A stretch of DNA of 45,793 bases from a virus (IMGVR_UViG_3300032287_000839:1-45793); one strand, 5' to 3'; counted from the stretch's first letter, positions 32,527 through 45,793 are shown. Numbers and translations: made by a program. Notes: generated by a model not told the origin, from the letters alone.

Positions 32527-33279
32527 ATGAATTATCCATTTATATCATGTAAATGTATAACTTACGGTAGAGTGTCCACGCTTGAGGAGAGTGTTGAATC
32601 TTTCCTCAAGCAGGATTACCCTGCAGATAAGTGTGAGCTCATAATAGTCAATGATTACCCATTACAGACTCTTATGTTCGATCATCCCCAAGTTAAGATA
32701 GTTAACCTATCCGAGACATTTAAAACTATAGGAGAGAAAGAAAACTATGCTACAGAATTATGTCAAGGAGATATAATATGTCAGTGGGATGATGATGATG
32801 TAGCCTTACCAAATCATTTGCAGAATGTAGTTAAATACATGACTGATAAAGTAAACATCATTCACTGGGAAGTAGGAGTGTTATGTCACATTACAGGAAT
32901 TGAACAAGTTGGTTGGATAGGTAACTCTGGTATTGTATTTAGAAAGTCAGCTTGGAAAGCTATAGGAGGACATCCTCTTGAAAATGCTGGATATGATATG
33001 ACATTCATTGAACGTATCAATGCACATGGAGGTAGACTATTTGCTAAACCTCCTAAAGAAGAAGCAAGCTGGTTCTATATGTGGGGCGGTAGAGGTTATC
33101 ACATGAGTGGTGAGGGTACTGACCATCCTGGAAAACTCAACGCTATACAAAGACACAGTGCTCATATTGAAAGAGAAAGAGCCATAGGAAATATACCTAC
33201 AGGAGATGTACATTTAGTACCCAACTGGAAAAATGATTATTCCGAAATGTTAAAAAATTTCATCAATAAAAATAAATAA
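32527..33279 (+). CDS. Glycosyltransferase family 2
   Basis: CITYGR...LEESVESFLKQDYP...ELIIVND; IGEKEN; WDDDD. Confidence 0.88.
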   Translation: MNYPFISCKCITYGRVSTLEESVESFLKQDYPADKCELIIVNDYPLQTLMFDHPQVKIVNLSETFKTIGEKENYATELCQGDIICQWDDDDVALPNHLQNVVKYMTDKVNIIHWEVGVLCHITGIEQVGWIGNSGIVFRKSAWKAIGGHPLENAGYDMTFIERINAHGGRLFAKPPKEEASWFYMWGGRGYHMSGEGTDHPGKLNAIQRHSAHIERERAIGNIPTGDVHLVPNWKNDYSEMLKNFINKNK

Positions 33280-33280
33280 T

Positions 33281-33838
33281 ATGTCTATTAAAGATACACT
33301 ATATGCCATGAGAAGTGGGCATTACAAAAACGGATTAGAAGATTTAATCAACTATGTGAATACGTTCTCTAATACTAAAGAGATGACAATCCTTGAGATT
33401 GGGTCTTATGCTGGAGAATCAACAGAAATGTTTGCTCAAAACTTTAAAAGTGTCATAGCAATTGATCCTTTTATGAATGATTATGATCCAAATGATCCTG
33501 CTTGTAGCTACATGGACTTAACAAATGTCTACAAAACTTTCAGTTCAGTGATATCTAAATACGATAACATAACTCATATTAGAAAAACATCTGATGATGC
33601 TATCAATGAACTTAAAGACACTAAGGTGGACTTAATTTACATTGATGGTTTACATACATACGACCAGGTTAAGAAAGACATTGATAACTATATAGGTTTA
33701 ATCAATGAGTCTGGATTCATTAGTGGTCATGATTATCATTCAGTTTGGCAAGGAGTTGTAGATGCTATACATGAGAAAATAGGTAAGCCTGATACAATAT
33801 TTCAAGACACTAGTTGGATTAAAAAATTAAACAGGTAG
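33281..33838 (+). CDS. Class I SAM-dependent methyltransferase (Methyltransf_24-like)
   Basis: LEIGSYAGES; AIDPF; DLIYIDGLHTY; GHDY. Confidence 0.9.
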   Translation: MSIKDTLYAMRSGHYKNGLEDLINYVNTFSNTKEMTILEIGSYAGESTEMFAQNFKSVIAIDPFMNDYDPNDPACSYMDLTNVYKTFSSVISKYDNITHIRKTSDDAINELKDTKVDLIYIDGLHTYDQVKKDIDNYIGLINESGFISGHDYHSVWQGVVDAIHEKIGKPDTIFQDTSWIKKLNR

Positions 33839-35883: not shown

Positions 35884-36195
35884 TTAACAATTCCATTTAC
35901 GAAGTGATTTATTAATTCTGCTATTAGGATCGTTAGCCGTTTTAGCAGATGTGAGTTTTTTCTTCATGCCTGACATTCTAGAACAGAAAGACTTACGTCT
36001 ACCTGCTGCTTTAGAACCAGCTTTAAGTTTGGAAGGTTTAGTAGTAACAGCAGTCTTCAGTTTAGAACCTGGGTTAGCTTTTCTATAAGAAGCTACACCT
36101 TTAGCATTTAAACCTCCCTCTGGATTTTTACCTTCTTTGCGAGTCCAAGCAGGTGTACTACCTCCAGACTTCATAACCTTTTTAACTGTTGCCAT
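35884..36195 (-). CDS. Basic phage protein (DUF6321-like)
   Basis: RRKSFCSRMSG...DPNSRINKSLRKWNC. Confidence 0.8.
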   Translation of the reverse strand: MATVKKVMKSGGSTPAWTRKEGKNPEGGLNAKGVASYRKANPGSKLKTAVTTKPSKLKAGSKAAGRRKSFCSRMSGMKKKLTSAKTANDPNSRINKSLRKWNC

Positions 36196-36587
36196 TATTT
36201 CTTCTTTTTATTGTAATTAGGATTTTCTCTATGCCATTTTCTAACAGAAGCAACACCTTGTTTAACAGTTTTGGCTTTAGATTTCTTAGTGAGGTTAATC
36301 TTGTCCCACTTACCAGCAGGTATTCCTGCAGTGTGATCAACAACCACATCTCCTTTTTTATTCTTAAATACCTTGTGAGTTTGACCACCCACCTTAACAA
36401 CAGTACCACCACTCTTTAATGTACTTCCTGCATATGGACCTTTCTTTTTAATTAATGGACCATTAGGTACAGGAGTGATAGCTCCTTTAATAGGAGAAAG
36501 CGTATCCCCATTTTTAAGTACACGCTTACCTACATAAGCTTCTGCTTTCTGTGGATTATAAACTTTTGTTTTAGGTATTCTTGCCAT
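36195..36587 (-). CDS. Lys-rich protein
   Basis: 130 aa; LKSGG; TAATG coupling. Confidence 0.8.
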   Translation of the reverse strand: MARIPKTKVYNPQKAEAYVGKRVLKNGDTLSPIKGAITPVPNGPLIKKKGPYAGSTLKSGGTVVKVGGQTHKVFKNKKGDVVVDHTAGIPAGKWDKINLTKKSKAKTVKQGVASVRKWHRENPNYNKKKK

Positions 36588-36588
36588 G

Positions 36589-36939
36589 TTATTTACCTTT
36601 TCTAGCTCTGCCCATTGCCTTAAATGTCTTAGCTAACGCTTTTCTCTTAGGAGTGCATGTAGCTTTAGTCATTGGTGTACAATAGCCTTTATGAGCTGGA
36701 TTAACAGCTTTCTGAATCCAATTTTTATCTTTAGCAGTCTTACCACCACTCTTTTGTTTAGGAGTAGATTTACTTGCTTTGATGCTATCTTTTATCTTTT
36801 GTTCTTTAGCCAAGTGCTCTTTAGCAATTTTTGCTGAGTCTTTGCTGAAGTTTTTAAAAGCTGCTCTAATATCAGCCTTGGTAGCACTGTCTGCTTTTAT
36901 ACCTGATTGAGCTTTCTTAACCTTTTTTATAGTTGCCAT
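36589..36939 (-). CDS. Lys-rich protein
   Basis: MATIKK, KAQSG, KQKSGG, NWIQKAV. Confidence 0.8.
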   Translation of the reverse strand: MATIKKVKKAQSGIKADSATKADIRAAFKNFSKDSAKIAKEHLAKEQKIKDSIKASKSTPKQKSGGKTAKDKNWIQKAVNPAHKGYCTPMTKATCTPKRKALAKTFKAMGRARKGK

Positions 36940-36942
36940 GTC

Positions 36943-37326
36943 TTAGTGTTTTTTAGACTTACCACCCATTCTCATTTTTGTAGCACCCAATTGCTTATCT
37001 TTTACTAAAGAAGCTTTACCCTTAGCACCAGCTAATGTTTTCTTTTGAACCTTAGTGTATGCACCTTTAGGATCTACAGGACCTACACGCTTGTTACTAG
37101 CTTTTAAACCAGATAAGCTACCACCATCTTTCATTTTGGTTTTAACCTTAGACTTTTGTTTTTTACTTGCTTCCATCATCGTAGGACTATATTTCAAATC
37201 AGCATAGTTACGAGCAGATTTATCAGAAGTAGATCCCATTTTGCGTTCAGCAAGTCTCTCAGCACTTTCTTTAATAACAGACTTGTAACCTGATTGAGCT
37301 TTTTTTGTTTTTTTAATTGTTGCCAT
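36943..37326 (-). CDS. Lys-rich protein
   Basis: MATIKK, KAQSG, KMKDGG, KMRMGG. Confidence 0.8.
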   Translation of the reverse strand: MATIKKTKKAQSGYKSVIKESAERLAERKMGSTSDKSARNYADLKYSPTMMEASKKQKSKVKTKMKDGGSLSGLKASNKRVGPVDPKGAYTKVQKKTLAGAKGKASLVKDKQLGATKMRMGGKSKKH

Positions 37327-37678: not shown

Positions 37679-37960
37679 TTATAAGGTGATATCAAATACT
37701 ATAGTTGCTGAACTTTTAATACTTTTAGATAGATCCAGGTGGATCTGCAAGAGGTTATGAAACTTCAATAGCTCTTCTAGCAACATATCATTATACCGTG
37801 GTATAGAAGGTGCTAATCTAAAGTGATAAGAATTAGGATTCTTTGTAATTTCTAATGTAGACAATTCATCTACAGAAGATATAATTCCTTCCAGGTGAGC
37901 AAAATAAGCAAGTTCGTTATCTTGCATCACCTCAGGAAAAAACTTTTTATTTATTTGCAT
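37679..37960 (-). CDS. Hypothetical protein
   Basis: 93 aa; TAATG coupling. Confidence 0.75.
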   Translation of the reverse strand: MQINKKFFPEVMQDNELAYFAHLEGIISSVDELSTLEITKNPNSYHFRLAPSIPRYNDMLLEELLKFHNLLQIHLDLSKSIKSSATIVFDITL

Positions 37961-38364
37961 TAAGACAACGTTAATAAGTATTTAGTTTTAGCTGCTTCTC
38001 CAGATAATGCATCTGCTAAGTTAGCTATGTCATGGAAGTTGTTTGTTTCAGCATAGCTTTTTAAGTTACTAGCAAAGTCCATAAGAGCTGTTACCACTGA
38101 GTTAGCATCTGCAGCACTTAATGCTTCTATTTTAAATACACCAGGACGTTTACCTGTATAACCCATAAGTTTCTCTACCACACCATCTTTGAAATCATGT
38201 ACATAATCGTACAATCCTCCAAGAGCTTGATGTTCTGCATAACTCTTTGTCTGCCAATGTAATAGATGTAATTGCTCATGAAAATAAGTAAGCTTTCCAG
38301 CTACTGTTTCTAAGTTTAGTTCTCCTGATTTCATCATTTCTTCAGGGAATAGTGATTTTGCCAT
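37960..38364 (-). CDS. Ferritin/Dps-like four-helix protein (DUF5856-like)
   Basis: QLHLLHWQTKSYAEHQALGGLYD...D...E..MG. Confidence 0.75.
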   Translation of the reverse strand: MAKSLFPEEMMKSGELNLETVAGKLTYFHEQLHLLHWQTKSYAEHQALGGLYDYVHDFKDGVVEKLMGYTGKRPGVFKIEALSAADANSVVTALMDFASNLKSYAETNNFHDIANLADALSGEAAKTKYLLTLS

Positions 38365-38385: not shown

Positions 38386-39648
38386 TTAACAAGGATTATT
38401 TATAACGTTCGTGAATCCAATTTGCCAGTAGGTTTCTCCACCACACTCAATACTTATGTTTGAGCTTCCACCAGGAACTGTTTTATATTCTACAGAGGTG
38501 GGATCGATAAAGTTTTTAGGTGTACCATCCCAAGCTTCAATATTCAATGCAGTAGCTAGACGATCTATTCTACATGCATATCCTACAGTGTTACCTCCTG
38601 CAAACACAAGTCCTATGATTTTCCAAGTTCCATTGAAGTCAGCAATTAATGCAGACCCAGAATCACCACCAGCAATAGGAAAGTTACAATTGGTACTGTA
38701 TCTAGTGAATCCTATTACATCACTGAATGGAACAAAGAAGAAAAGACTAGTCCAGTTTCCTTGATAGTGAAATCCTGATACATTTATATTTGATCCAACT
38801 GAAAATGTTCTTAATCTACAAGGACCAGGGCCTTTAACACCACTAGTTCTACCAGAGCTGTACAATTCAGGATCGGTTGTTAATAAATCATCAATCTCTT
38901 CTGTTGTAGCAAACTCCATTGGATCTTCGTAGTTTAATCCAAATTGTTTATATGATTCTTCAAAGTCTATCACCTCAGGATCTACAGAACATAAAGCAGC
39001 ATCTAAGTAATTGGGTCCAGACCTAAGCATTGGTACATATCTAATAACTCTACCAATTGATAAGTTTGCTGCAGAAGGTTGAATTTCTCCTGACTGGAAT
39101 GTAGGATCACACAACTCAGCTTCTAAACCCCCAGATATATTTTGATCACTTGTATAGAAAGCATTCTTTACCATTACGTGATTGTTACTAACACCAACTA
39201 ATGCTTGAGTAAAACTGTCTACAGCAATAAATCCTAATGTTCCTACATAGCCTTGAATAAGCCCTGATGCAATAGATACTCCTCCTTTTAGAGGTCTAAT
39301 TGTATTTCTATTAGCAGGAGGTGTGTTAGGATCTTGCCAACTATAACAGTTATTTAAAACTGATGTAGGACATGTAGCTGGAGGACATCCAGGACATGAT
39401 AATAGTTTAACTTCACCCACTTCAAATACATCTGTATTATAAACTGTTCCATCGATTTCTACAGTGCTAGGTAGCAATTGGTCTTCTGGAATCTGATCTA
39501 AAGGTAATTTCTGTTTAACATGAAATACAATAGCTTTCTCATCAGTGTGTTCTCCACCAACTATTTTGAATCCATAAGCCACACCAACATCTTCTGGTGT
39601 AGAGTCAAATAATTCTTTTATTTTATCATTTATAGCTTGCGTTAGCAT
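38386..39648 (-). CDS. Trypsin-like (Nal1-like) serine protease
   Basis: GTLG; His in SNNHV; Asp in LDAAL; SGRTSG; Ser in GDSGS; IIGLVFAG. Confidence 0.85.
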   Translation of the reverse strand: MLTQAINDKIKELFDSTPEDVGVAYGFKIVGGEHTDEKAIVFHVKQKLPLDQIPEDQLLPSTVEIDGTVYNTDVFEVGEVKLLSCPGCPPATCPTSVLNNCYSWQDPNTPPANRNTIRPLKGGVSIASGLIQGYVGTLGFIAVDSFTQALVGVSNNHVMVKNAFYTSDQNISGGLEAELCDPTFQSGEIQPSAANLSIGRVIRYVPMLRSGPNYLDAALCSVDPEVIDFEESYKQFGLNYEDPMEFATTEEIDDLLTTDPELYSSGRTSGVKGPGPCRLRTFSVGSNINVSGFHYQGNWTSLFFFVPFSDVIGFTRYSTNCNFPIAGGDSGSALIADFNGTWKIIGLVFAGGNTVGYACRIDRLATALNIEAWDGTPKNFIDPTSVEYKTVPGGSSNISIECGGETYWQIGFTNVINNPC

Positions 39649-39659
39649 ATTTTTATTTT

Positions 39660-40208
39660 TTAATATACATCATATTTTACAAACACTGTGTTAGTTCCTG
39701 GTGCATCTCCAGGTATAATGTCATATTTTACAAAGACAGTATTGACTAAACTATCTGGATTAATTGTAGTTGTTGTACTTGTTGTACTGGTAGTACTTGT
39801 TGTTGTGCTACTAGTAGTAGAGGTTGTTGAGGTGGTTGATGTGGTTGAACTAGTAGTTGTACTAGTTGTGCTAGTAGTTGTACTACTGGAAGTGCTAGTC
39901 GTAGTGGTTGTTGTTACACCTTTATAAACAGCATCTATTTCTATCCACCCTGTTCCACTATTAGCATCTAAAGGTTCTCTTCTTTGAATCACAAGACTAC
40001 TAGGAACCACTCTACCAAACATGTCTAATCTAATAAAGGCCCTAAGGACATTTCCATTAGTGCCTGTTGTGTTAGAACCAAGAACATTAGACACAGCTAC
40101 CCAATTACCGTTTCTTGGTCTAACTGGGCTTATGATAGGACCCCCAGCAACAATTCTGCCCTGGGAGTCATATCTAACATAAGCTGTATTTCCGTTTCTT
40201 CCTAACAT
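39660..40208 (-). CDS. Thr/Ser-stalk protein with two AYVRYD-type domains
   Basis: Run of about 50 consecutive T/S residues; NTVFVKYD twice at the C-terminus. Confidence 0.8.
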   Translation of the reverse strand: MLGRNGNTAYVRYDSQGRIVAGGPIISPVRPRNGNWVAVSNVLGSNTTGTNGNVLRAFIRLDMFGRVVPSSLVIQRREPLDANSGTGWIEIDAVYKGVTTTTTTSTSSSTTTSTTSTTTSSTTSTTSTTSTTSSTTTSTTSTTSTTTTINPDSLVNTVFVKYDIIPGDAPGTNTVFVKYDVY

Positions 40209-40238
40209 TAATTAGATTTACTCTGTTTTATTTATTTA

Positions 40239-40688
40239 TTAGCAAGAGAGTAAAGATAGTACACCACCAGCATTAACTAAAAGTCTAGTCATACCTTGAG
40301 AAATTACATATCCTTCTGTTACAGGAACAGTTAATCCGATATTTGTGAAGATTGCAACTCCTGGTGCTAATGTTGGTGAAGCTGAATAGAACGTGATTTC
40401 CCCTTCTGTAGTGGTACTACATGCATCCTCTGCATTTGCCCAAAAATTTCTAGTAAATGTTCCTGAACCTGAGGTTGTAGTTGTTGATGTTGTGCTAGTT
40501 GATGTGCTTGTAGAACTAGTTGATGTAGTTGTTGTAGTTGGTGGAATGTATTCACAACATTCTGATATTGCAATTTCTTGCCATTTTCCTACTGTAGGTT
40601 TCTTTCTTCTAAAGATAAGACTACCTGCAACTACTCTGTTACTACCATCGTAGCGAACATAAGCTTTTAAGTTTTGATTGCTTCCCAT
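40239..40688 (-). CDS. Thr/Ser-stalk protein, paralogue of 39660..40208
   Basis: KAYVRYDGSNRVVAGS; T/S run. Confidence 0.8.
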   Translation of the reverse strand: MGSNQNLKAYVRYDGSNRVVAGSLIFRRKKPTVGKWQEIAISECCEYIPPTTTTTSTSSTSTSTSTTSTTTTSGSGTFTRNFWANAEDACSTTTEGEITFYSASPTLAPGVAIFTNIGLTVPVTEGYVISQGMTRLLVNAGGVLSLLSC

Positions 40689-40708
40689 AATTTTAATTTT
40701 TAATTAGG

Positions 40709-41758
40709 TTAATAGTTTAGGTTATATTTGTTTTTTAATTCGATCAATTTTGTTACATAGTAGTGTGTACCATGTTTCTTTGCATTCTCATCATTTAAGA
40801 CAACTTGCATGTGTGTATCTCTGAAAGGATCTTTACCTGTATGATAAGCTCCTTTATAGAAAGCTGGATAACTTCCCATATTTTGTTGAGTTATACCAGC
40901 ATTATGAAACAATCCAAGTCTTTCAACCTTCTCTATAGAATCTGATGCCCAAGAGAATTCCATTTCAGGAATGTTTTTAGTTTCAATATCTCTCAACCAA
41001 AGGTTCCATAACACAGCCCACATATCTGCACACCAGCTTTGAAATCCTTTATCTTCACTAGCAAAGAATTGCCCATTTATATGTTGAAGATATTTACGAA
41101 TGATGATACAATCATTCATCACCTTGTGCCAAAACTTAGCATCTACATTCTTTAAGAAGTATTGAGCTCCTCCAGAATGATCGTTGTTAGCTTCAGCTAT
41201 TTCTCTAGAGATACCTATTAAGCTTGTAAGCTCAGCAAGTACGTCTCTAGTTTTGTATTCTTCCAATTTATCAGCTTTTACCTGATGTATTTTACTATCA
41301 AAATATGTAGCATTTATGTAGCTGTTTGTATCAGAAAGATAACATATATCATCGTTGATATACTCATCCACATTAAATTTATCTGTAAATAGAATATCAC
41401 AGTCACAGTAGAACACTGCTTTAGCACTCATCTCAGGATGATCCTGGAAATATCTCATTAATACATATGGACGTAGAACAGGAATATAAGTTCCTAGATG
41501 TTGGCTAACATCTCCACCATCCTTGTAATAAGCAAATTGTGCTTCTGGATATAAATCTTCTATCTTTTGCCATTTGTCACTCTTCTCTCTGAAGCTAGGA
41601 GTGTACACAAGTACAATAGCTTTGTCTGAGTGACCAATTTCTTTTAAACTTTCTAACCATGCATGAACCTGCCAAGTATAGTAAGTATCATCTGGCTGAG
41701 CGGCTACAAATCTTAATTCTTTACTCATATTATATAGTTGTTGGTTTATATCTATCAT
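40709..41758 (-). CDS. GT-A glycosyltransferase resembling HPAT/SERGT protein O-glycosyltransferases
   Basis: YYTWQ; YIPVLRPYVL; DxD motif YCDCD; GGAQY; WCADMWA. Confidence 0.6.
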   Translation of the reverse strand: MIDINQQLYNMSKELRFVAAQPDDTYYTWQVHAWLESLKEIGHSDKAIVLVYTPSFREKSDKWQKIEDLYPEAQFAYYKDGGDVSQHLGTYIPVLRPYVLMRYFQDHPEMSAKAVFYCDCDILFTDKFNVDEYINDDICYLSDTNSYINATYFDSKIHQVKADKLEEYKTRDVLAELTSLIGISREIAEANNDHSGGAQYFLKNVDAKFWHKVMNDCIIIRKYLQHINGQFFASEDKGFQSWCADMWAVLWNLWLRDIETKNIPEMEFSWASDSIEKVERLGLFHNAGITQQNMGSYPAFYKGAYHTGKDPFRDTHMQVVLNDENAKKHGTHYYVTKLIELKNKYNLNY

Positions 41759-42323
41759 CTCTTTTTAAAATAGGAGTGGTGTTAGATCTCCAACTTTTTC
41801 CATATATAATCTGCCTTATAATTGATAAACTAACACCTATAAGTTCAGAAACTTCTTTTGTGGTTTTTCCTGAGTTATATAATTCTTTAAGAATAGTAAC
41901 TTTTTCATCTGTAAGAGTAGCTCTACTATTTCCTTCACCTGCTCTACTAGGTTGTAATCCTAATTTATAAGCATGTAATTGATTTTCTGAATTAGTAACC
42001 CACTCAAGATTTACAACACTATTATCAGTTTTTATACCATTAATGTGATTTATTTGAGTATATCCTTCAGGCTTTATTAAGAAAGCACTAGATACAAGTT
42101 TGTGAACTAATCTAGTATGAGTTCCATTTTTACGAAGCCTAACTTCAGGATATCCCTTTTTATTAAGCATCTGTTTCATTTCTTGTCCTCTAGTCAATCT
42201 AAGCCCACTTCTACCTTGTTTAAGTCTATCTATTCCTCTAATTTTACCAAGACTACTTGCCTGATATCCATCAAAGTCAGGAATATTTCTCCATTCTTCA
42301 CAGATAAATTTTAAATCCTTCAT
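41730..42323 (-). CDS. NUMOD4-HNH homing endonuclease
   Basis: EEWRNIPDFDGYQASSLGKIR (NUMOD4); VHKLV...INHINGIKTDNSVVNLEWVTNSENQLHA; C-terminal HTH. Confidence 0.92.
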   Translation of the reverse strand: MKDLKFICEEWRNIPDFDGYQASSLGKIRGIDRLKQGRSGLRLTRGQEMKQMLNKKGYPEVRLRKNGTHTRLVHKLVSSAFLIKPEGYTQINHINGIKTDNSVVNLEWVTNSENQLHAYKLGLQPSRAGEGNSRATLTDEKVTILKELYNSGKTTKEVSELIGVSLSIIRQIIYGKSWRSNTTPILKRDDRYKPTTI

Positions 42324-42351
42324 ATGTAGTTTTTGTTGGTTTGTTTTACTT

Positions 42352-42720
42352 TTATGGAGCTATAGTAGTAGTGGTGGTTGTTGTAGTATGAGAATCTATA
42401 CAAGGTTGACAATCACTAGGAGTGTCCCATACATATTCAATAGTTCCAACATCTTCAGGACCTGTTGCTGCATCTACAATAAACCAACATTCAGGAGTGG
42501 CATTATTAACAATAGTACCTTCTGCTAATGTACCAGCACCAGTGTATTTAATTACATGGTATTCCATTCTCTCACAACCAGCTACATTATAATAAGTTGC
42601 AGTCTGTGGAGCAATTACAACATTACCTGCCACTTGTGTTAATATTTCTAATTGTTTAGAGATTTGCCAAAGCAAATTAGCTTTTTGACTCCATCCTATT
42701 TGTCTACTTGGTATTGCCAT
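42352..42720 (-). CDS. MAIPSRQIGW-family protein with a poly-Thr tail
   Basis: N-terminal 30 aa shared with 42762..43418. Confidence 0.8.
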   Translation of the reverse strand: MAIPSRQIGWSQKANLLWQISKQLEILTQVAGNVVIAPQTATYYNVAGCERMEYHVIKYTGAGTLAEGTIVNNATPECWFIVDAATGPEDVGTIEYVWDTPSDCQPCIDSHTTTTTTTTIAP

Positions 42721-42761
42721 TTTATTTTTTACTTTAATATTTACTTAACCTTTTATTTATT

Positions 42762-43418
42762 CTAACAAGCTGTCTTGTTTGATAATTCACCAGGATTAAC
42801 AGCTCCAACTGTATAACTAAACCCACCATAAGAAAAATAAGTATTACTTGTAAATGGAGTGGCAAGTGTTGGTGAGGTGTACAATATCGTTCCGTTATCA
42901 AATGCTGTACCACAAGCAACAAAAGCATTAAATACAGAACTACCTGTACAAGCGTCTCCTTGAGATACGTCAGAAACTAGACCACCTCCAATGTAACTAA
43001 CGCTTTGGAAACCGAATATGCCATCAATTCCTGTAGCTCCGTAACTATATTTACCAGTTGTATTAAAATATGTTTGACCCAATTCTACTTCAATTGTTAA
43101 TGATGTATCCGTATATAATTGGGTTCCAATAGTTAATACAGAGTCTGCTGAGTAATAGTTACTAGGACTAACTGGTCCAGTTAGACAATTTGCAGTTTCT
43201 GTACTAGTAGAACCTAATGAGTAAGTATAATAACCAGGAAAAGTTGTTGTTGTACTTGTTGTGGTGCTTGTTGTAGAGCTAGTAGAGCTAGTGGTTGTGG
43301 TGGTTGTATTACCATTAATGTTGTATACAACCCTAGTAAGGTATTCTAATTGTTTAGATATCTGCCACAAAAGATTCTCTTCTGTTCCCCAGCCTATCTG
43401 TCTAGATGGAATTGCCAT
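42762..43418 (-). CDS. MAIPSRQIGW-family protein with a Thr/Ser stalk and beta-rich C-terminal domain
   Basis: MAIPSRQIGW...NLLWQISKQLE; T/S run. Confidence 0.8.
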   Translation of the reverse strand: MAIPSRQIGWGTEENLLWQISKQLEYLTRVVYNINGNTTTTTTSSTSSTTSTTTSTTTTFPGYYTYSLGSTSTETANCLTGPVSPSNYYSADSVLTIGTQLYTDTSLTIEVELGQTYFNTTGKYSYGATGIDGIFGFQSVSYIGGGLVSDVSQGDACTGSSVFNAFVACGTAFDNGTILYTSPTLATPFTSNTYFSYGGFSYTVGAVNPGELSNKTAC

Positions 43419-43420
43419 GA

Positions 43421-44578
43421 TTAATATGTTTTATTTAGTATAAATATATCGCTGTATATGTTGTTTCCTGTAGATGCAGATCCCCATTCAACTGTTATGT
43501 CTAATGTATTAGAAACTGTTGTGTCAAATGTTGTGTTGTTCACTACATTAAATCCAAATCCTTGAACAGAAGCATTGTTAGTTTTTGTGTAATGAAAACT
43601 ACCTAATGATACAATAGATGCTACACCAGCACCTCCAATTTGTCTAATAGTGAAATCAACATTCAAAGACCATATATCATCTGTAACAGCACTTCCAAGG
43701 TTTTGTAAACCACTATCTAGAAGAAGAACAGCTCCTGTCCTCATTCTAATTCTTATAGTTTGATTATTTGTAGCGTTAATAACACCACCAAGAATTGCTC
43801 TAAAAGAATCACCAACACTAAAACCATTAGCAGGAACACTCAATGTACCCACTCCTGATCCAATAATTGTTGTTTCAGCTGTTGTATTTGTAACAATAGT
43901 ACTGTTGGCTGTTTGAGAATATAATCCATACACCACAGGTAAAGGAAGTACAGGAGAAGTTCCTGAAGAGCCACTGGTACCTGCTGTACCTGAAGTTCCA
44001 GCTACACCTTGTATGCCTTGCACTCCCTGAGGACCTTGCAATCCTGATGTTCCTGATGAGCCATTAGCTCCAGATGTACCAGAAGAACCATCTCCTCCAG
44101 CAGCACCTTCTAAGTTAACTGTCCAAGAAGAATATGTTCCACTTCCTATCACTGTAATAGGAGGACCAATAACTAATGCACCTGTACCAGCATTATAACT
44201 TACAACACTACACACTTGATGATTATTTACATCATAAGTGATGATTATATCTTGAGCTGGTGTATAAGCTAAACCAGTTTCAACAGTTAATGTTGTAGAT
44301 GTTCCTAATGTAAATTCTGTAGTTGATGTTGTTCTATATCTATCACCAGCAGCACCAGAACTACCAGATGTTCCAGCTGAACCAGCCACACCTTGAGTAC
44401 CTTGTGTACCTTGTACACCTTGAGGACCAGTTTGTCCCACTGCTCCATTGATACCAGAAGTACCAGAAGTACCTGATGTTCCAATATTGACAAAATCATC
44501 TAGATTTAACCAACCTTCGTACCCATCACATGGATTACAAATTTCTCTCCAGAATCCTGGTTTTATAAAAGTAGGCAT
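43421..44578 (-). CDS. Collagen-like fibre protein (putative virion fibre)
   Basis: Two G-X-Y tracts (GTSGTSGINGAVGQTGPQGVQG...); beta-rich intervening and C-terminal domains. Confidence 0.8.
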   Translation of the reverse strand: MPTFIKPGFWREICNPCDGYEGWLNLDDFVNIGTSGTSGTSGINGAVGQTGPQGVQGTQGTQGVAGSAGTSGSSGAAGDRYRTTSTTEFTLGTSTTLTVETGLAYTPAQDIIITYDVNNHQVCSVVSYNAGTGALVIGPPITVIGSGTYSSWTVNLEGAAGGDGSSGTSGANGSSGTSGLQGPQGVQGIQGVAGTSGTAGTSGSSGTSPVLPLPVVYGLYSQTANSTIVTNTTAETTIIGSGVGTLSVPANGFSVGDSFRAILGGVINATNNQTIRIRMRTGAVLLLDSGLQNLGSAVTDDIWSLNVDFTIRQIGGAGVASIVSLGSFHYTKTNNASVQGFGFNVVNNTTFDTTVSNTLDITVEWGSASTGNNIYSDIFILNKTY

Positions 44579-44671: not shown

Positions 44672-45793
44672 TTAGAGATTCACCTTACTACCCACCACAG
44701 CAAACATTAAAACAGGTATGCTTGGGTTAGTGCTTACACTAGTCTTAAGTCCTGTGTTAAACTTAAATCTTTTGGTGATTGAGTAGTCTATATTGAAGCC
44801 TGTAAGGAACATCATATCTTCACTTACTGTAAAGGTTTTATCCTTTGTTCCATAAGTTACAGGGCTCCCAGAGATATATAGGTCAGGAGATATAGTCAAT
44901 CTTCTATTAATGCTAAACGGTTTAGTGTAAAACATTAATAATGAATGAGTTGTAGTGTATTGTTTTTCGTTAGCACCATAGCTTGCAGAGGCTACACTGA
45001 TTGTAGCATTAGCACCTGCAACACCCCATTTCCCCATAGGGAATATCTTAGCGTATGTTACAAACCCAAACAAATTACCAAAGGCATATGCTATTGTGCC
45101 ACCATAATTAGTTATGTTGTCAAGTTTTCCTTGATCATTCATATTCATCACTGTGTATCTTCCTGATAGAGCAAACTGTTTTAAGTTGCTCCACACCATA
45201 CCAGTTACTCCCCAGCTCACATCACCTGCCATAGATGTTTGTGATATACCTGAGGTAGCTATAAGTTGTATTGAGTTGTCTAATGTTTGTCCTCCTGTAA
45301 GATCAGAGTTGAATAGTATAGGGTTCATCTTAGCTTGAGACTTACCTCCACCTTTACCACCTGACTTACCCCCTCCCCCCTTGCTCTCAGATTTAGATTC
45401 TGATTTTGATTCTCCTGATGAGCTAGAAGATTCTGATCCACCACCACCATCACCTCCTGAAGCTACAGCACTTGAGGCTGCAGAGGATGCAGCAGAACCA
45501 GCTGCTGAACTAACAGCACTTCCTACAGCTGATGAGACAGCAGTTGCTGTAACAAGTGTAGTAGTTTGTGTTGTTTGAGCCACTGAGCACGGAGATAATG
45601 CTTGCTGTTCTTTGTAAACTTGATTGATCCAGGTTTGGAAAGCCCCACTATAAACATCACTAGCTGTAAAAGCTTTAGATTTATTATAAAAAACAATAAC
45701 GGTAGAGCCAGTAAGAGGTATAGAAAAAGTGCTCGTAACTTTAGTACAAGGGTCTGTAAAGGTTTGTATAAGAGTTTGAGAATACGCATATAC
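44672..45793 (-). CDS. Putative outer-membrane beta-barrel protein with a Ser/Gly/Ala linker (5' end outside the window)
   Basis: Frame open to base 45793 (VYAYSQTLIQTFTDPC...); alternating amphipathic strands ending VVGSKVNL. Confidence 0.6.
   Translation of the reverse strand, partial: VYAYSQTLIQTFTDPCTKVTSTFSIPLTGSTVIVFYNKSKAFTASDVYSGAFQTWINQVYKEQQALSPCSVAQTTQTTTLVTATAVSSAVGSAVSSAAGSAASSAASSAVASGGDGGGGSESSSSSGESKSESKSESKGGGGKSGGKGGGKSQAKMNPILFNSDLTGGQTLDNSIQLIATSGISQTSMAGDVSWGVTGMVWSNLKQFALSGRYTVMNMNDQGKLDNITNYGGTIAYAFGNLFGFVTYAKIFPMGKWGVAGANATISVASASYGANEKQYTTTHSLLMFYTKPFSINRRLTISPDLYISGSPVTYGTKDKTFTVSEDMMFLTGFNIDYSITKRFKFNTGLKTSVSTNPSIPVLMFAVVGSKVNL

Follow-up and report, generated by a model that had tools for sequence, protein, structure and literature searches.

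A candidate virion O-glycosylation system in a crAss-like phage: an HPAT/SGT1-like glycosyltransferase family coupled to proteins with poly-Thr tracts

The window analysed here is a stretch of viral DNA of 45,793 nucleotides (IMGVR_UViG_3300032287_000839, positions 1-45793). Our subject is a glycosyltransferase (GT) gene at 40709-41758, which lies among genes for proteins with runs of Thr and Ser (T/S runs). An earlier note, based on the sequence, had proposed that this enzyme and its neighbours give the phage particle mucin-like, glycosylated stalks. The results on fold and on co-occurrence support that proposal computationally, and we estimate a probability of roughly three in four that the enzyme is the initiating enzyme of a virion O-glycosylation system which acts on Thr/Ser tracts of the phage's own proteins. 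All of the open reading frames (ORFs) outlined in the earlier note are present, on the minus strand and with the coordinates given below. The enzyme is the following:

40709-41758 (minus strand): HPAT/SGT1-like GT-A glycosyltransferase of the family phrog_4417, assigned by the fold of its AlphaFold2 model, its DxD motif and the PHROG profile

The AlphaFold2 model of the enzyme (pLDDT 96.2, pTM 0.92) has a GT-A glycosyltransferase fold. Among its structural matches in Swiss-Prot, ranks 1 to 9 are all SGT1 (GT96) or HPAT (GT95) enzymes (E 1.3e-11 to 2.9e-7, TM 0.48-0.63), followed by GT8 enzymes (TM about 0.42-0.47); the sequence identity to the SGT1 and HPAT matches is only 10-13%. In the clusters of the AlphaFold database, three unannotated members of the enzyme's own family are followed by mostly HPAT-like proteins (ranks 5-30) and then by DUF7164 and GT8, and in the ESM Atlas the nearest named clusters carry the Pfam domain PF23452 (HPAT). 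Concerning solved structures, Foldseek against the PDB gave alpha-1,3-GalT, GTA/GTB, glycogenin and UGGT at E of about 1e-6, and VIA-align gave Z 12-14 for Skp1 alpha-galactosyltransferase (13.9), glycogenin (13.7), LgtC, UGGT, LARGE1 and GlyE (12.4). The capsid glycosyltransferase of PBCV-1 is a fold neighbour at Z 10.9, a value within generic GT-A similarity. These solved neighbours are retaining GT-A enzymes (GT6, GT8, UGGT), several of which act on proteins. Judged by the model, the enzyme resembles the retaining GT-A clan (GT6, GT8 and GT24-like), and it probably shares the retaining chemistry. The best structural matches are enzymes which glycosylate peptide hydroxyls, as the earlier note had anticipated, and no DNA- or lipid-acting enzyme is found near the top of the fold matches.

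The four motifs on which the earlier note had based its assignment are located in the 349-residue ORF at positions 26-30 (YYTWQ), 91-100 (YIPVLRPYVL), 117-121 (YCDCD) and 242-248 (WCADMWA); M11 (at 41728, giving a protein of 338 residues) is the likely true start, as in most homologs. In an alignment of 68 sequences, whose members are 29-47% identical to the window enzyme, the invariant residues are Y91, D119, D121, Y147, Q240, F268, H285, K302 and Y334. D119 and D121 form the DxD motif, follow strand 114-118 in the model and are invariant in 15 additional sequences as well. The match to phrog_4417 (E = 4.9e-52) covers enzyme residues 16-319 and positions 2-275 of the 293 in the profile; phrog_4417 is labelled as of unknown function, and the family members in public databases as hypothetical or uncharacterized. 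The family comprises 2163 clusters at 90% identity in a word-seeded search and 764 clusters at 50% identity in an exhaustive one. Hits by tblastn were found in 77 phage records, mostly of Lactobacillus, Enterococcus, Staphylococcus, Lactococcus and Clostridium phages, plus one Chryseobacterium phage. The highest 19-residue Kyte-Doolittle mean of the enzyme is 0.7, with no transmembrane segment and no type II membrane anchor. It is predicted to be a soluble, cytoplasmic protein, and because it has no hydrophobic segment it should act in the cytoplasm.

The co-occurrence of the enzyme with T/S-rich genes, which the earlier note had suggested looking for across phages, holds in diverged named phages, in a blind reverse scan with its control and in matched comparisons of GT-positive and GT-negative phages; with the genome-level comparison, the coupling to poly-Thr rests on four independent lines. 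In eight named phage lineages and nine metagenomic ones the GT gene adjoins, and usually directly follows, the gene of a protein with a poly-Thr tract, while the GTs are 25-60% identical between lineages. The tract-bearing proteins are head, tail or other virion proteins wherever they can be identified. In the seven named phages given here, the GT gene comes directly after that of a head, tail or T/S-run protein. The upstream protein itself bears the tract in Enterococcus phage phiFL1A (major tail protein ending T5ST6SST7QASSK, with the GT as the next gene; the head protein ends T5KPT5KPT7QG), Clostridium phage phiCTP1 (tail tube ending T5NAPIT6V, GT as the next gene), Lactobacillus phage Semele (two T-rich proteins directly upstream of the GT), Staphylococcus phage RQ1 (GT after a major tail protein ending ST7P), Chryseobacterium phage MA9V-3 (two T/S-run genes upstream of the GT) and Lacticaseibacillus phage R3.3 (GT after the gene of a head protein ending T6KAPT5SSHA). 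This is not so in Lactococcus phage bIL285: there the GT follows the head protein gene and the tract is instead found on the major tail protein, which ends T9RHD.

A blind scan of IMG/VR for (ACN)9 found a member of the GT family in 9 of 118 loci (E below 1e-54), and all nine GTs are on the same strand as the tract-bearing ORF and abut its 3' end. The poly-Glu control, (GAR)9, gave a GT in none of 120 loci with a total length equal to that of the poly-Thr set (Fisher p = 0.0015). The nine GTs are 27-34% identical to the window enzyme and at most 60% identical to each other. The proteins upstream of them include a large virion structural protein and major tail (tube) proteins, whose C-termini are strings of domains of about 85 residues with poly-Thr linkers.

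Homologs of the phiFL1A tail protein (50-60% identity) have in common the stretch ...PGE(T)TG(D/E)(Y/F)..., after which they diverge. A Thr tail follows it in both GT-positive phages (phiFL1A and R3.3) and in none of the six in which the GT is absent genome-wide (Javan47, 315.6, Javan570, cIP1, phiJL-1 and Bassarid). The homologous head proteins follow the same pattern, with a Thr tail in R3.3 and none in phiJL-1 and Bassarid of the same genus. At the genome level, (ACN)7 tracts are lacking in five Crassvirales genomes without the GT (494 kb), whereas the genome to which the window belongs has nine matches, all on the coding strand. This genome is 109,793 bp long and rated 95% complete by CheckV; the window is its first 45.8 kb. 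The enzyme and the T/S-run genes are clustered in it beyond chance, in line with the co-location described in the earlier note: four of the six neighbouring genes have a T/S run, against about 9 of about 150 genome-wide (hypergeometric p ~9e-5).

Some further features of the tract-bearing proteins in other phages are given as separate observations. At RQ1 (L086, 14229-14931) an overlapping ORF in another frame encodes (T7-VAP/EP/QP)n and then an acidic tail; through a programmed frameshift, some of the tail subunits may carry this as a long poly-Thr extension. Seven of the IMG/VR loci (L088, L114, L159, L169, L179, L180 and L203) have large GT-upstream proteins with poly-Thr runs about 85-95 residues apart, the last run ending 67-84 residues before the C-terminus in six of them and 107 in L180. 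Such regular spacing points to a chain of small domains, probably of Ig-like type, with Thr linkers between them.

Around the enzyme in the window, the lengths of the T/S runs reported earlier stand for two proteins (50 residues at 39660-40208 and 22 at 42762-43418) and need a correction of one residue for the other two (23 and not 22 at 40239-40688, 8 and not 7 at 42352-42720). Thr and Ser codons are mixed in the runs, which are therefore not DNA microsatellites. The genes which flank the enzyme are listed below; fractions refer to the close relatives that have a homolog.

39660-40208 (minus strand): 182-residue protein with two AYVRYD-type motifs, a 50-residue T/S run and a short repeat-containing C-terminus; candidate acceptor (14/42)
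40239-40688 (minus strand): 149-residue protein with an N-terminal AYVRYD..GR.VAG motif, a 23-residue T/S run and a 76-residue C-terminal domain; candidate acceptor (42/42)
41730-42323 (minus strand): HNH/NUMOD4 homing endonuclease (Pfam NUMOD4 E = 6.9e-13, HNH_3 E = 3.2e-8, phrog_59)
42352-42720 (minus strand): 122-residue protein with the end TTTTTTTT-IAP; candidate acceptor (36/42)
42762-43418 (minus strand): 218-residue protein with an N-terminal anchor motif, a 22-residue T/S run and a 160-residue C-terminal domain; candidate acceptor (35/42)
43421-44578 (minus strand): collagen-like fibre protein with two T/S-rich G-X-Y blocks (Pfam Collagen E = 4.1e-15, tail-fibre PHROGs)

The 149-residue protein is encoded directly downstream of the GT gene. 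The gene of the T-tailed 122-residue protein would directly precede the GT gene without the endonuclease gene, which sits between the two and is probably a mobile insertion with no functional part in the system, since a homolog is found in just 9 of the 42 close relatives. Some close relatives have Thr-tailed mini-genes of 63-68 codons, 4-10 nt upstream of the GT, and 40 of the 42 close relatives with enough flanking DNA have at least one T/S-run ORF within 4 kb of it. For the C-terminal domain of the 218-residue protein, the Atlas gave weak leads only, to viral Ig-like or fibre proteins. The Pfam match agrees with the earlier description of the protein at 43421-44578 as a collagen-like fibre, and by homology it is a virion tail fibre; that it is itself an acceptor of the enzyme is pure speculation.

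By their N-terminal motifs, the four small T/S-run proteins (39660-43418) form two paralogous pairs: MAIPSRQIGW..LLWQISKQLE is found in the 122- and 218-residue proteins, and AYVRYD..GR.VAG in the other pair, twice in the 182-residue protein. Their C-terminal parts are unrelated, and close relatives have different sets, as though anchor, stalk and tip modules were swapped as a cassette.

T/S-run proteins are also found beyond 39660-44578, with at least five more in the structural block of the genome. The genome's other T/S-run proteins include one whose C-terminus is tail-fibre-like and a virion structural protein of 1830 residues, which has five runs. As a side observation, a 379-residue protein outside the window (genome 98551-99690, minus strand), two genes from the major head protein, has the conserved tail TSTTSTTTT.WPSTSTTTTLIP. 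It is very strongly conserved and abundant in metagenomes, with 3617 relatives; the top 120 of these share at least 83% identity with it, and nearly all of the 120 have a length of exactly 379 residues. It has no PHROG or Pfam match, a profile search against the PDB was empty, and its AlphaFold2 model has a pLDDT of 38, from too shallow an alignment. An identity with the auxiliary capsid protein of crAss001 was considered and dropped: the Atlas lead scored only 0.86 and the search with PF25650 did not bear it out.

Several points weigh against the proposed O-glycosylation of Thr/Ser tracts. The likeness to GT95 and GT96 proposed earlier is upheld by structure (Swiss-Prot, AlphaFold database, Atlas) and not as family membership: the enzyme has no Pfam match at E up to 1, and only two of the 68 relatives match PF23452 (HPAT), weakly (E = 0.012). 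Without a Pfam HPAT match, it is structure that connects the enzyme with peptide O-glycosyltransferases, and proteins with a common fold may differ in their acceptors. The sequence was also compared with PDB chains, both as a single sequence and as a profile, with nothing meaningful found, and a six-frame search of the genome with PF23452 gave no match, though neither did its controls. The four small flanking proteins, whose place in the virion we infer, have no homolog of known function in Pfam or PHROG, and the searchable literature reports no glycan on any of these phages. In IMG/VR, 109 of the 118 poly-Thr loci are without a member of the GT family within the stretch fetched; either poly-Thr needs no such enzyme, or the gene lies further away. 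The sample of the matched comparison is small (two phages against six).

Other explanations of the enzyme and its neighbours can each draw on some of the data. One is that the enzyme glycosylates phage proteins away from the T/S runs: its target could be other residues of these proteins, the collagen-like fibre, or the enzyme itself in the way of a glycogenin-like primer. The runs would then be flexible linkers, found together with the enzyme because both are features of surface-exposed decoration modules. One of the best PDB fold matches is glycogenin, an enzyme whose acceptor is a Tyr of its own, three of the invariant residues of the family are tyrosines (Y91, Y147 and Y334) and the gene of the collagen-like fibre is adjacent. 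Yet the Thr tail is the sole feature which tracks the GT in homologous head and tail proteins, the remainder being conserved either way, and Firmicutes carriers such as phiFL1A have no collagen-like neighbour; we regard this explanation as unlikely. Somewhat less probable again is a non-protein acceptor in the host envelope (teichoic acid, lipopolysaccharide, capsule or a lipid carrier), in which case the adjacency to poly-Thr genes would reflect a common role at the host surface. The gene lies in late structural operons behind a head or tail gene in both Gram-positive and Bacteroidota phages, whose hosts have wholly different envelopes, and it is this recurrence, together with the gain and loss of Thr tails in step with the enzyme, that makes an envelope acceptor disfavoured; the missing membrane anchor and the peptide-hydroxyl transferases as nearest structural relatives also speak against it. 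In its favour are the many GT8-type GT-A fold neighbours which act on lipopolysaccharide or polysaccharide (LgtC and WbbM, for example), the GT9 heptosyltransferase-like domain encoded in the genome, and the phage glycosyltransferases that alter the host serotype, which are well known according to the summary in PMC12619734.

It is very improbable that there is no glycosylation at all, with the runs as unmodified spacers and the enzyme inactive or in an unrelated role. The catalytic DxD and other residues are invariant across lineages with 25-60% identity, the family is large and under purifying selection (the 764 clusters at 50% identity), and the positional coupling to poly-Thr is statistically strong, although no direct sign of a glycan has been found and Ser/Thr-rich linkers are a usual feature of the secreted proteins of bacteria and of phage proteins. 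Glycosylation of the phage's DNA bases against restriction, in the manner of the T-even phages, we reject as having next to no chance of being correct. Phage glycosyltransferases which hypermodify DNA are widespread, as cited in PMC12619734, but this genome has no gene of the thymidylate-synthase or hydroxymethylase families that could supply a hydroxymethyl base, and the GT gene is found in structural and not in nucleotide-metabolism modules; DNA is disfavoured as the acceptor for these reasons, and no DNA glycosyltransferase is among the top fold matches.

For the preferred reading, O-glycosylation of the phage's own Thr/Ser tracts, we propose the following mechanism. A soluble, cytoplasmic GT-A enzyme, metal-dependent (DxD, invariant His) and probably retaining, would move the first sugar from a nucleotide sugar to the Thr/Ser hydroxyls of poly-Thr/Ser tracts. 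The acceptors would be the structural and decoration proteins of the phage, and the transfer would take place before or during assembly. The tracts would be genetically encoded glycosylation tags, in the form of C-terminal tails, linkers between small domains, or stalks which connect an N-terminal anchor to a variable tip. The genome has three more genes which may belong to the same pathway:

32527-33279 (plus strand): GT2-family glycosyltransferase, candidate glycan extender (Pfam PF00535, E = 5.5e-12)
33281-33838 (plus strand): Methyltransf_24 protein, candidate sugar O-methyltransferase, directly after the GT2 gene (Pfam PF13578, E = 5.4e-16)
52598-54778 of the genome: GT4-GT9 fusion protein (Pfam scan)

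These proteins probably extend and methylate the glycan. Elsewhere, HPAT-like domains of the enzyme's family are fused to Methyltransf_24 (in P0128 and P0160), to GT2 (in P0206), to GT2 plus a methyltransferase, to GT6, and to O-FucT plus a PF11397 GlcNAc-transferase. These fusions tie the activities to one pathway. In Firmicutes carriers such as phiFL1A the structural module holds the HPAT-like enzyme alone, and an initiating, peptide-recognising role with optional extenders therefore fits. The virion would in this way acquire mucin-like stalks and tails clad in glycans, which are probably stiffened and protease-resistant; the benefit to the phage may lie in shielding, protease resistance, stiffening or adhesion.

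The genome has a plus-strand replication block (DNA polymerase, helicases, primase, RIIA/B, ribonucleotide reductase and a UvsX-like recombinase) and a long minus-strand block next to it (terminase, portal, major head protein, collagen-like fibres and giant proteins of up to 3808 residues). The closest named relatives of the portal are those of Crassvirales and of Flavobacterium or Cellulophaga phages, at about 25% identity. On this sequence evidence the phage is a distant and environmental member of the crAss-like group, probably with a host among the Bacteroidota. The general O-glycosylation of Bacteroidota is periplasmic and recognises D-(S/T)-(A/I/L/V/M/T); the host's own system is unlikely to reach these proteins.

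Additional observations were made on other genes of the same region. At 35884-37326 (minus strand) there are four successive small and very Lys-rich proteins (103, 130, 116 and 127 residues), two of which start with MATIKK.KKAQSG and the other two with comparable basic leaders; the four look like paralogous basic proteins, possibly DNA-binding ones or internal proteins that are packaged. The 134-residue protein at 37960-38364 (minus strand) matches DUF5856 (E = 1.5e-14), and from its sequence it may be a four-helix, ferritin/Dps-like protein. The 420-residue protein at 38386-39648 (minus strand) matches a PHROG 'protease' (E = 1.7e-18) and Pfam NAL1_N (E = 6.2e-7), a domain of the plant serine protease NARROW LEAF 1, and thus represents a further plant-named family in the gene block of the HPAT-like enzyme. 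A run of genes at window 44672-45793 and genome 45838-50094 (minus strand) encodes proteins with N-terminal leaders resembling signal peptides, MKQFILTLIVVVLLPVYAYSQ, MKYLIVIGCLLFSGVVNSQ and MKKLLLLVTIFQSIVTFSYAQ; the first of these proteins has an Ala/Ser/Gly-rich low-complexity region and then an apparent beta-rich domain. With these genes the phage may encode secreted proteins or proteins of the outer membrane.

Beyond this phage, we lean, a little past even odds, towards poly-Thr being a portable glycosylation tag read by one initiating family, phrog_4417, in phages of Firmicutes and Bacteroidota (including crAss-like ones) and probably in others. With enzyme and tag, these phages would cover their capsids, tails and fibre stalks with mucin-type O-glycans. 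This would be a second virion glycosylation system, far more widespread than that of the mycobacteriophages, and the equivalent in prokaryotic viruses, perhaps by common descent, of the extensin glycosyltransferases of plants and algae. If so, many more phages would have glycan-coated capsids and tails, including those of dairy and gut lactic acid bacteria, environmental crAss-like phages, and the sort of Enterococcus and Staphylococcus phages that are candidates for therapeutic use. This would matter for the immunogenicity and clearance of phages used in therapy, for virion stability, protease resistance and adhesion to mucus or host glycans, and for how mass-spectrometry and cryo-EM data of virions are read. 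It would also give a function to a "hypothetical protein" family of more than 2000 clusters at 90% identity, a sequence rule for glycosylated virion proteins (a poly-Thr tract plus a phrog_4417-type enzyme) and a minimal pair of enzyme and tag for engineering glycosylated proteins in bacteria. Several carriers were isolated on named hosts or are prophages of sequenced strains, which makes the prediction directly testable.

In the searchable literature there is no paper which links phages to HPAT/SGT1-type enzymes or to poly-Thr tails, in agreement with the earlier note, to which no description of this pairing of enzyme and substrate in phages was known. The plant and algal enzymes SGT1 (GT96) and HPAT1-3/RDN/PLENTY (GT95) are the best named structural matches and have in common with the phage enzyme the GT-A fold with DxD. 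These plant and algal enzymes glycosylate hydroxyls of peptide tracts that are repetitive and extended (Ser-Hyp4 of extensin, where Hyp is hydroxyproline). They differ in being membrane-anchored Golgi enzymes which act on Hyp or Ser, whereas the phage enzyme is predicted to be cytoplasmic and unanchored, lies below the Pfam HPAT threshold and has poly-Thr as its presumed acceptor. The glycosylation of serine-rich-repeat adhesins in Gram-positive bacteria (GtfA/B, GlyE and other GT8 enzymes) is similar in that long Ser/Thr-rich repeats are O-glycosylated in the cytoplasm by dedicated GT-A enzymes, with GlyE as a fold neighbour of the phage enzyme (Z 12.4). The initiating enzyme of that system is a GT-B pair; in contrast to the phage system it serves a cellular pathway of adhesin export, and no sequence relationship to the phage enzyme was detected. 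The chlorovirus PBCV-1 protein A064R is likewise a virus-encoded, cytoplasmic GT-A enzyme, acting on the major capsid protein, but it belongs to a eukaryotic giant virus and to another GT family.

Mycobacteriophages are the phages for which virion glycosylation has been described to date; in them it makes recognition by antibodies less effective. According to the summaries in PMC12619734 and PMC13313380, phage-encoded GTs with methyltransferases decorate the C-termini of capsid and tail-tube proteins in Che8 and its relatives (Freeman et al. 2023). The same C-termini are the site of the Thr tails in most Firmicutes carriers of phrog_4417. There are differences in the enzyme, the acceptor and the hosts: a profile search at E up to 1 found no phrog_4417-type GT in the whole Che8 record, and no Mycobacterium phage is among the 77 records with tblastn hits; the Che8 capsid and tail proteins end ...KTGS and ...SDGS, without poly-Thr; and the hosts there are Actinobacteria, whereas here they are Bacteroidota and Firmicutes, with the enzyme gene directly adjoining that of the presumed acceptor. 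The proposed interpretation is well supported computationally; compared with known virion O-glycosylation, it would bring in another enzyme family, poly-Thr as a distinctive acceptor tag and a far wider range of hosts.

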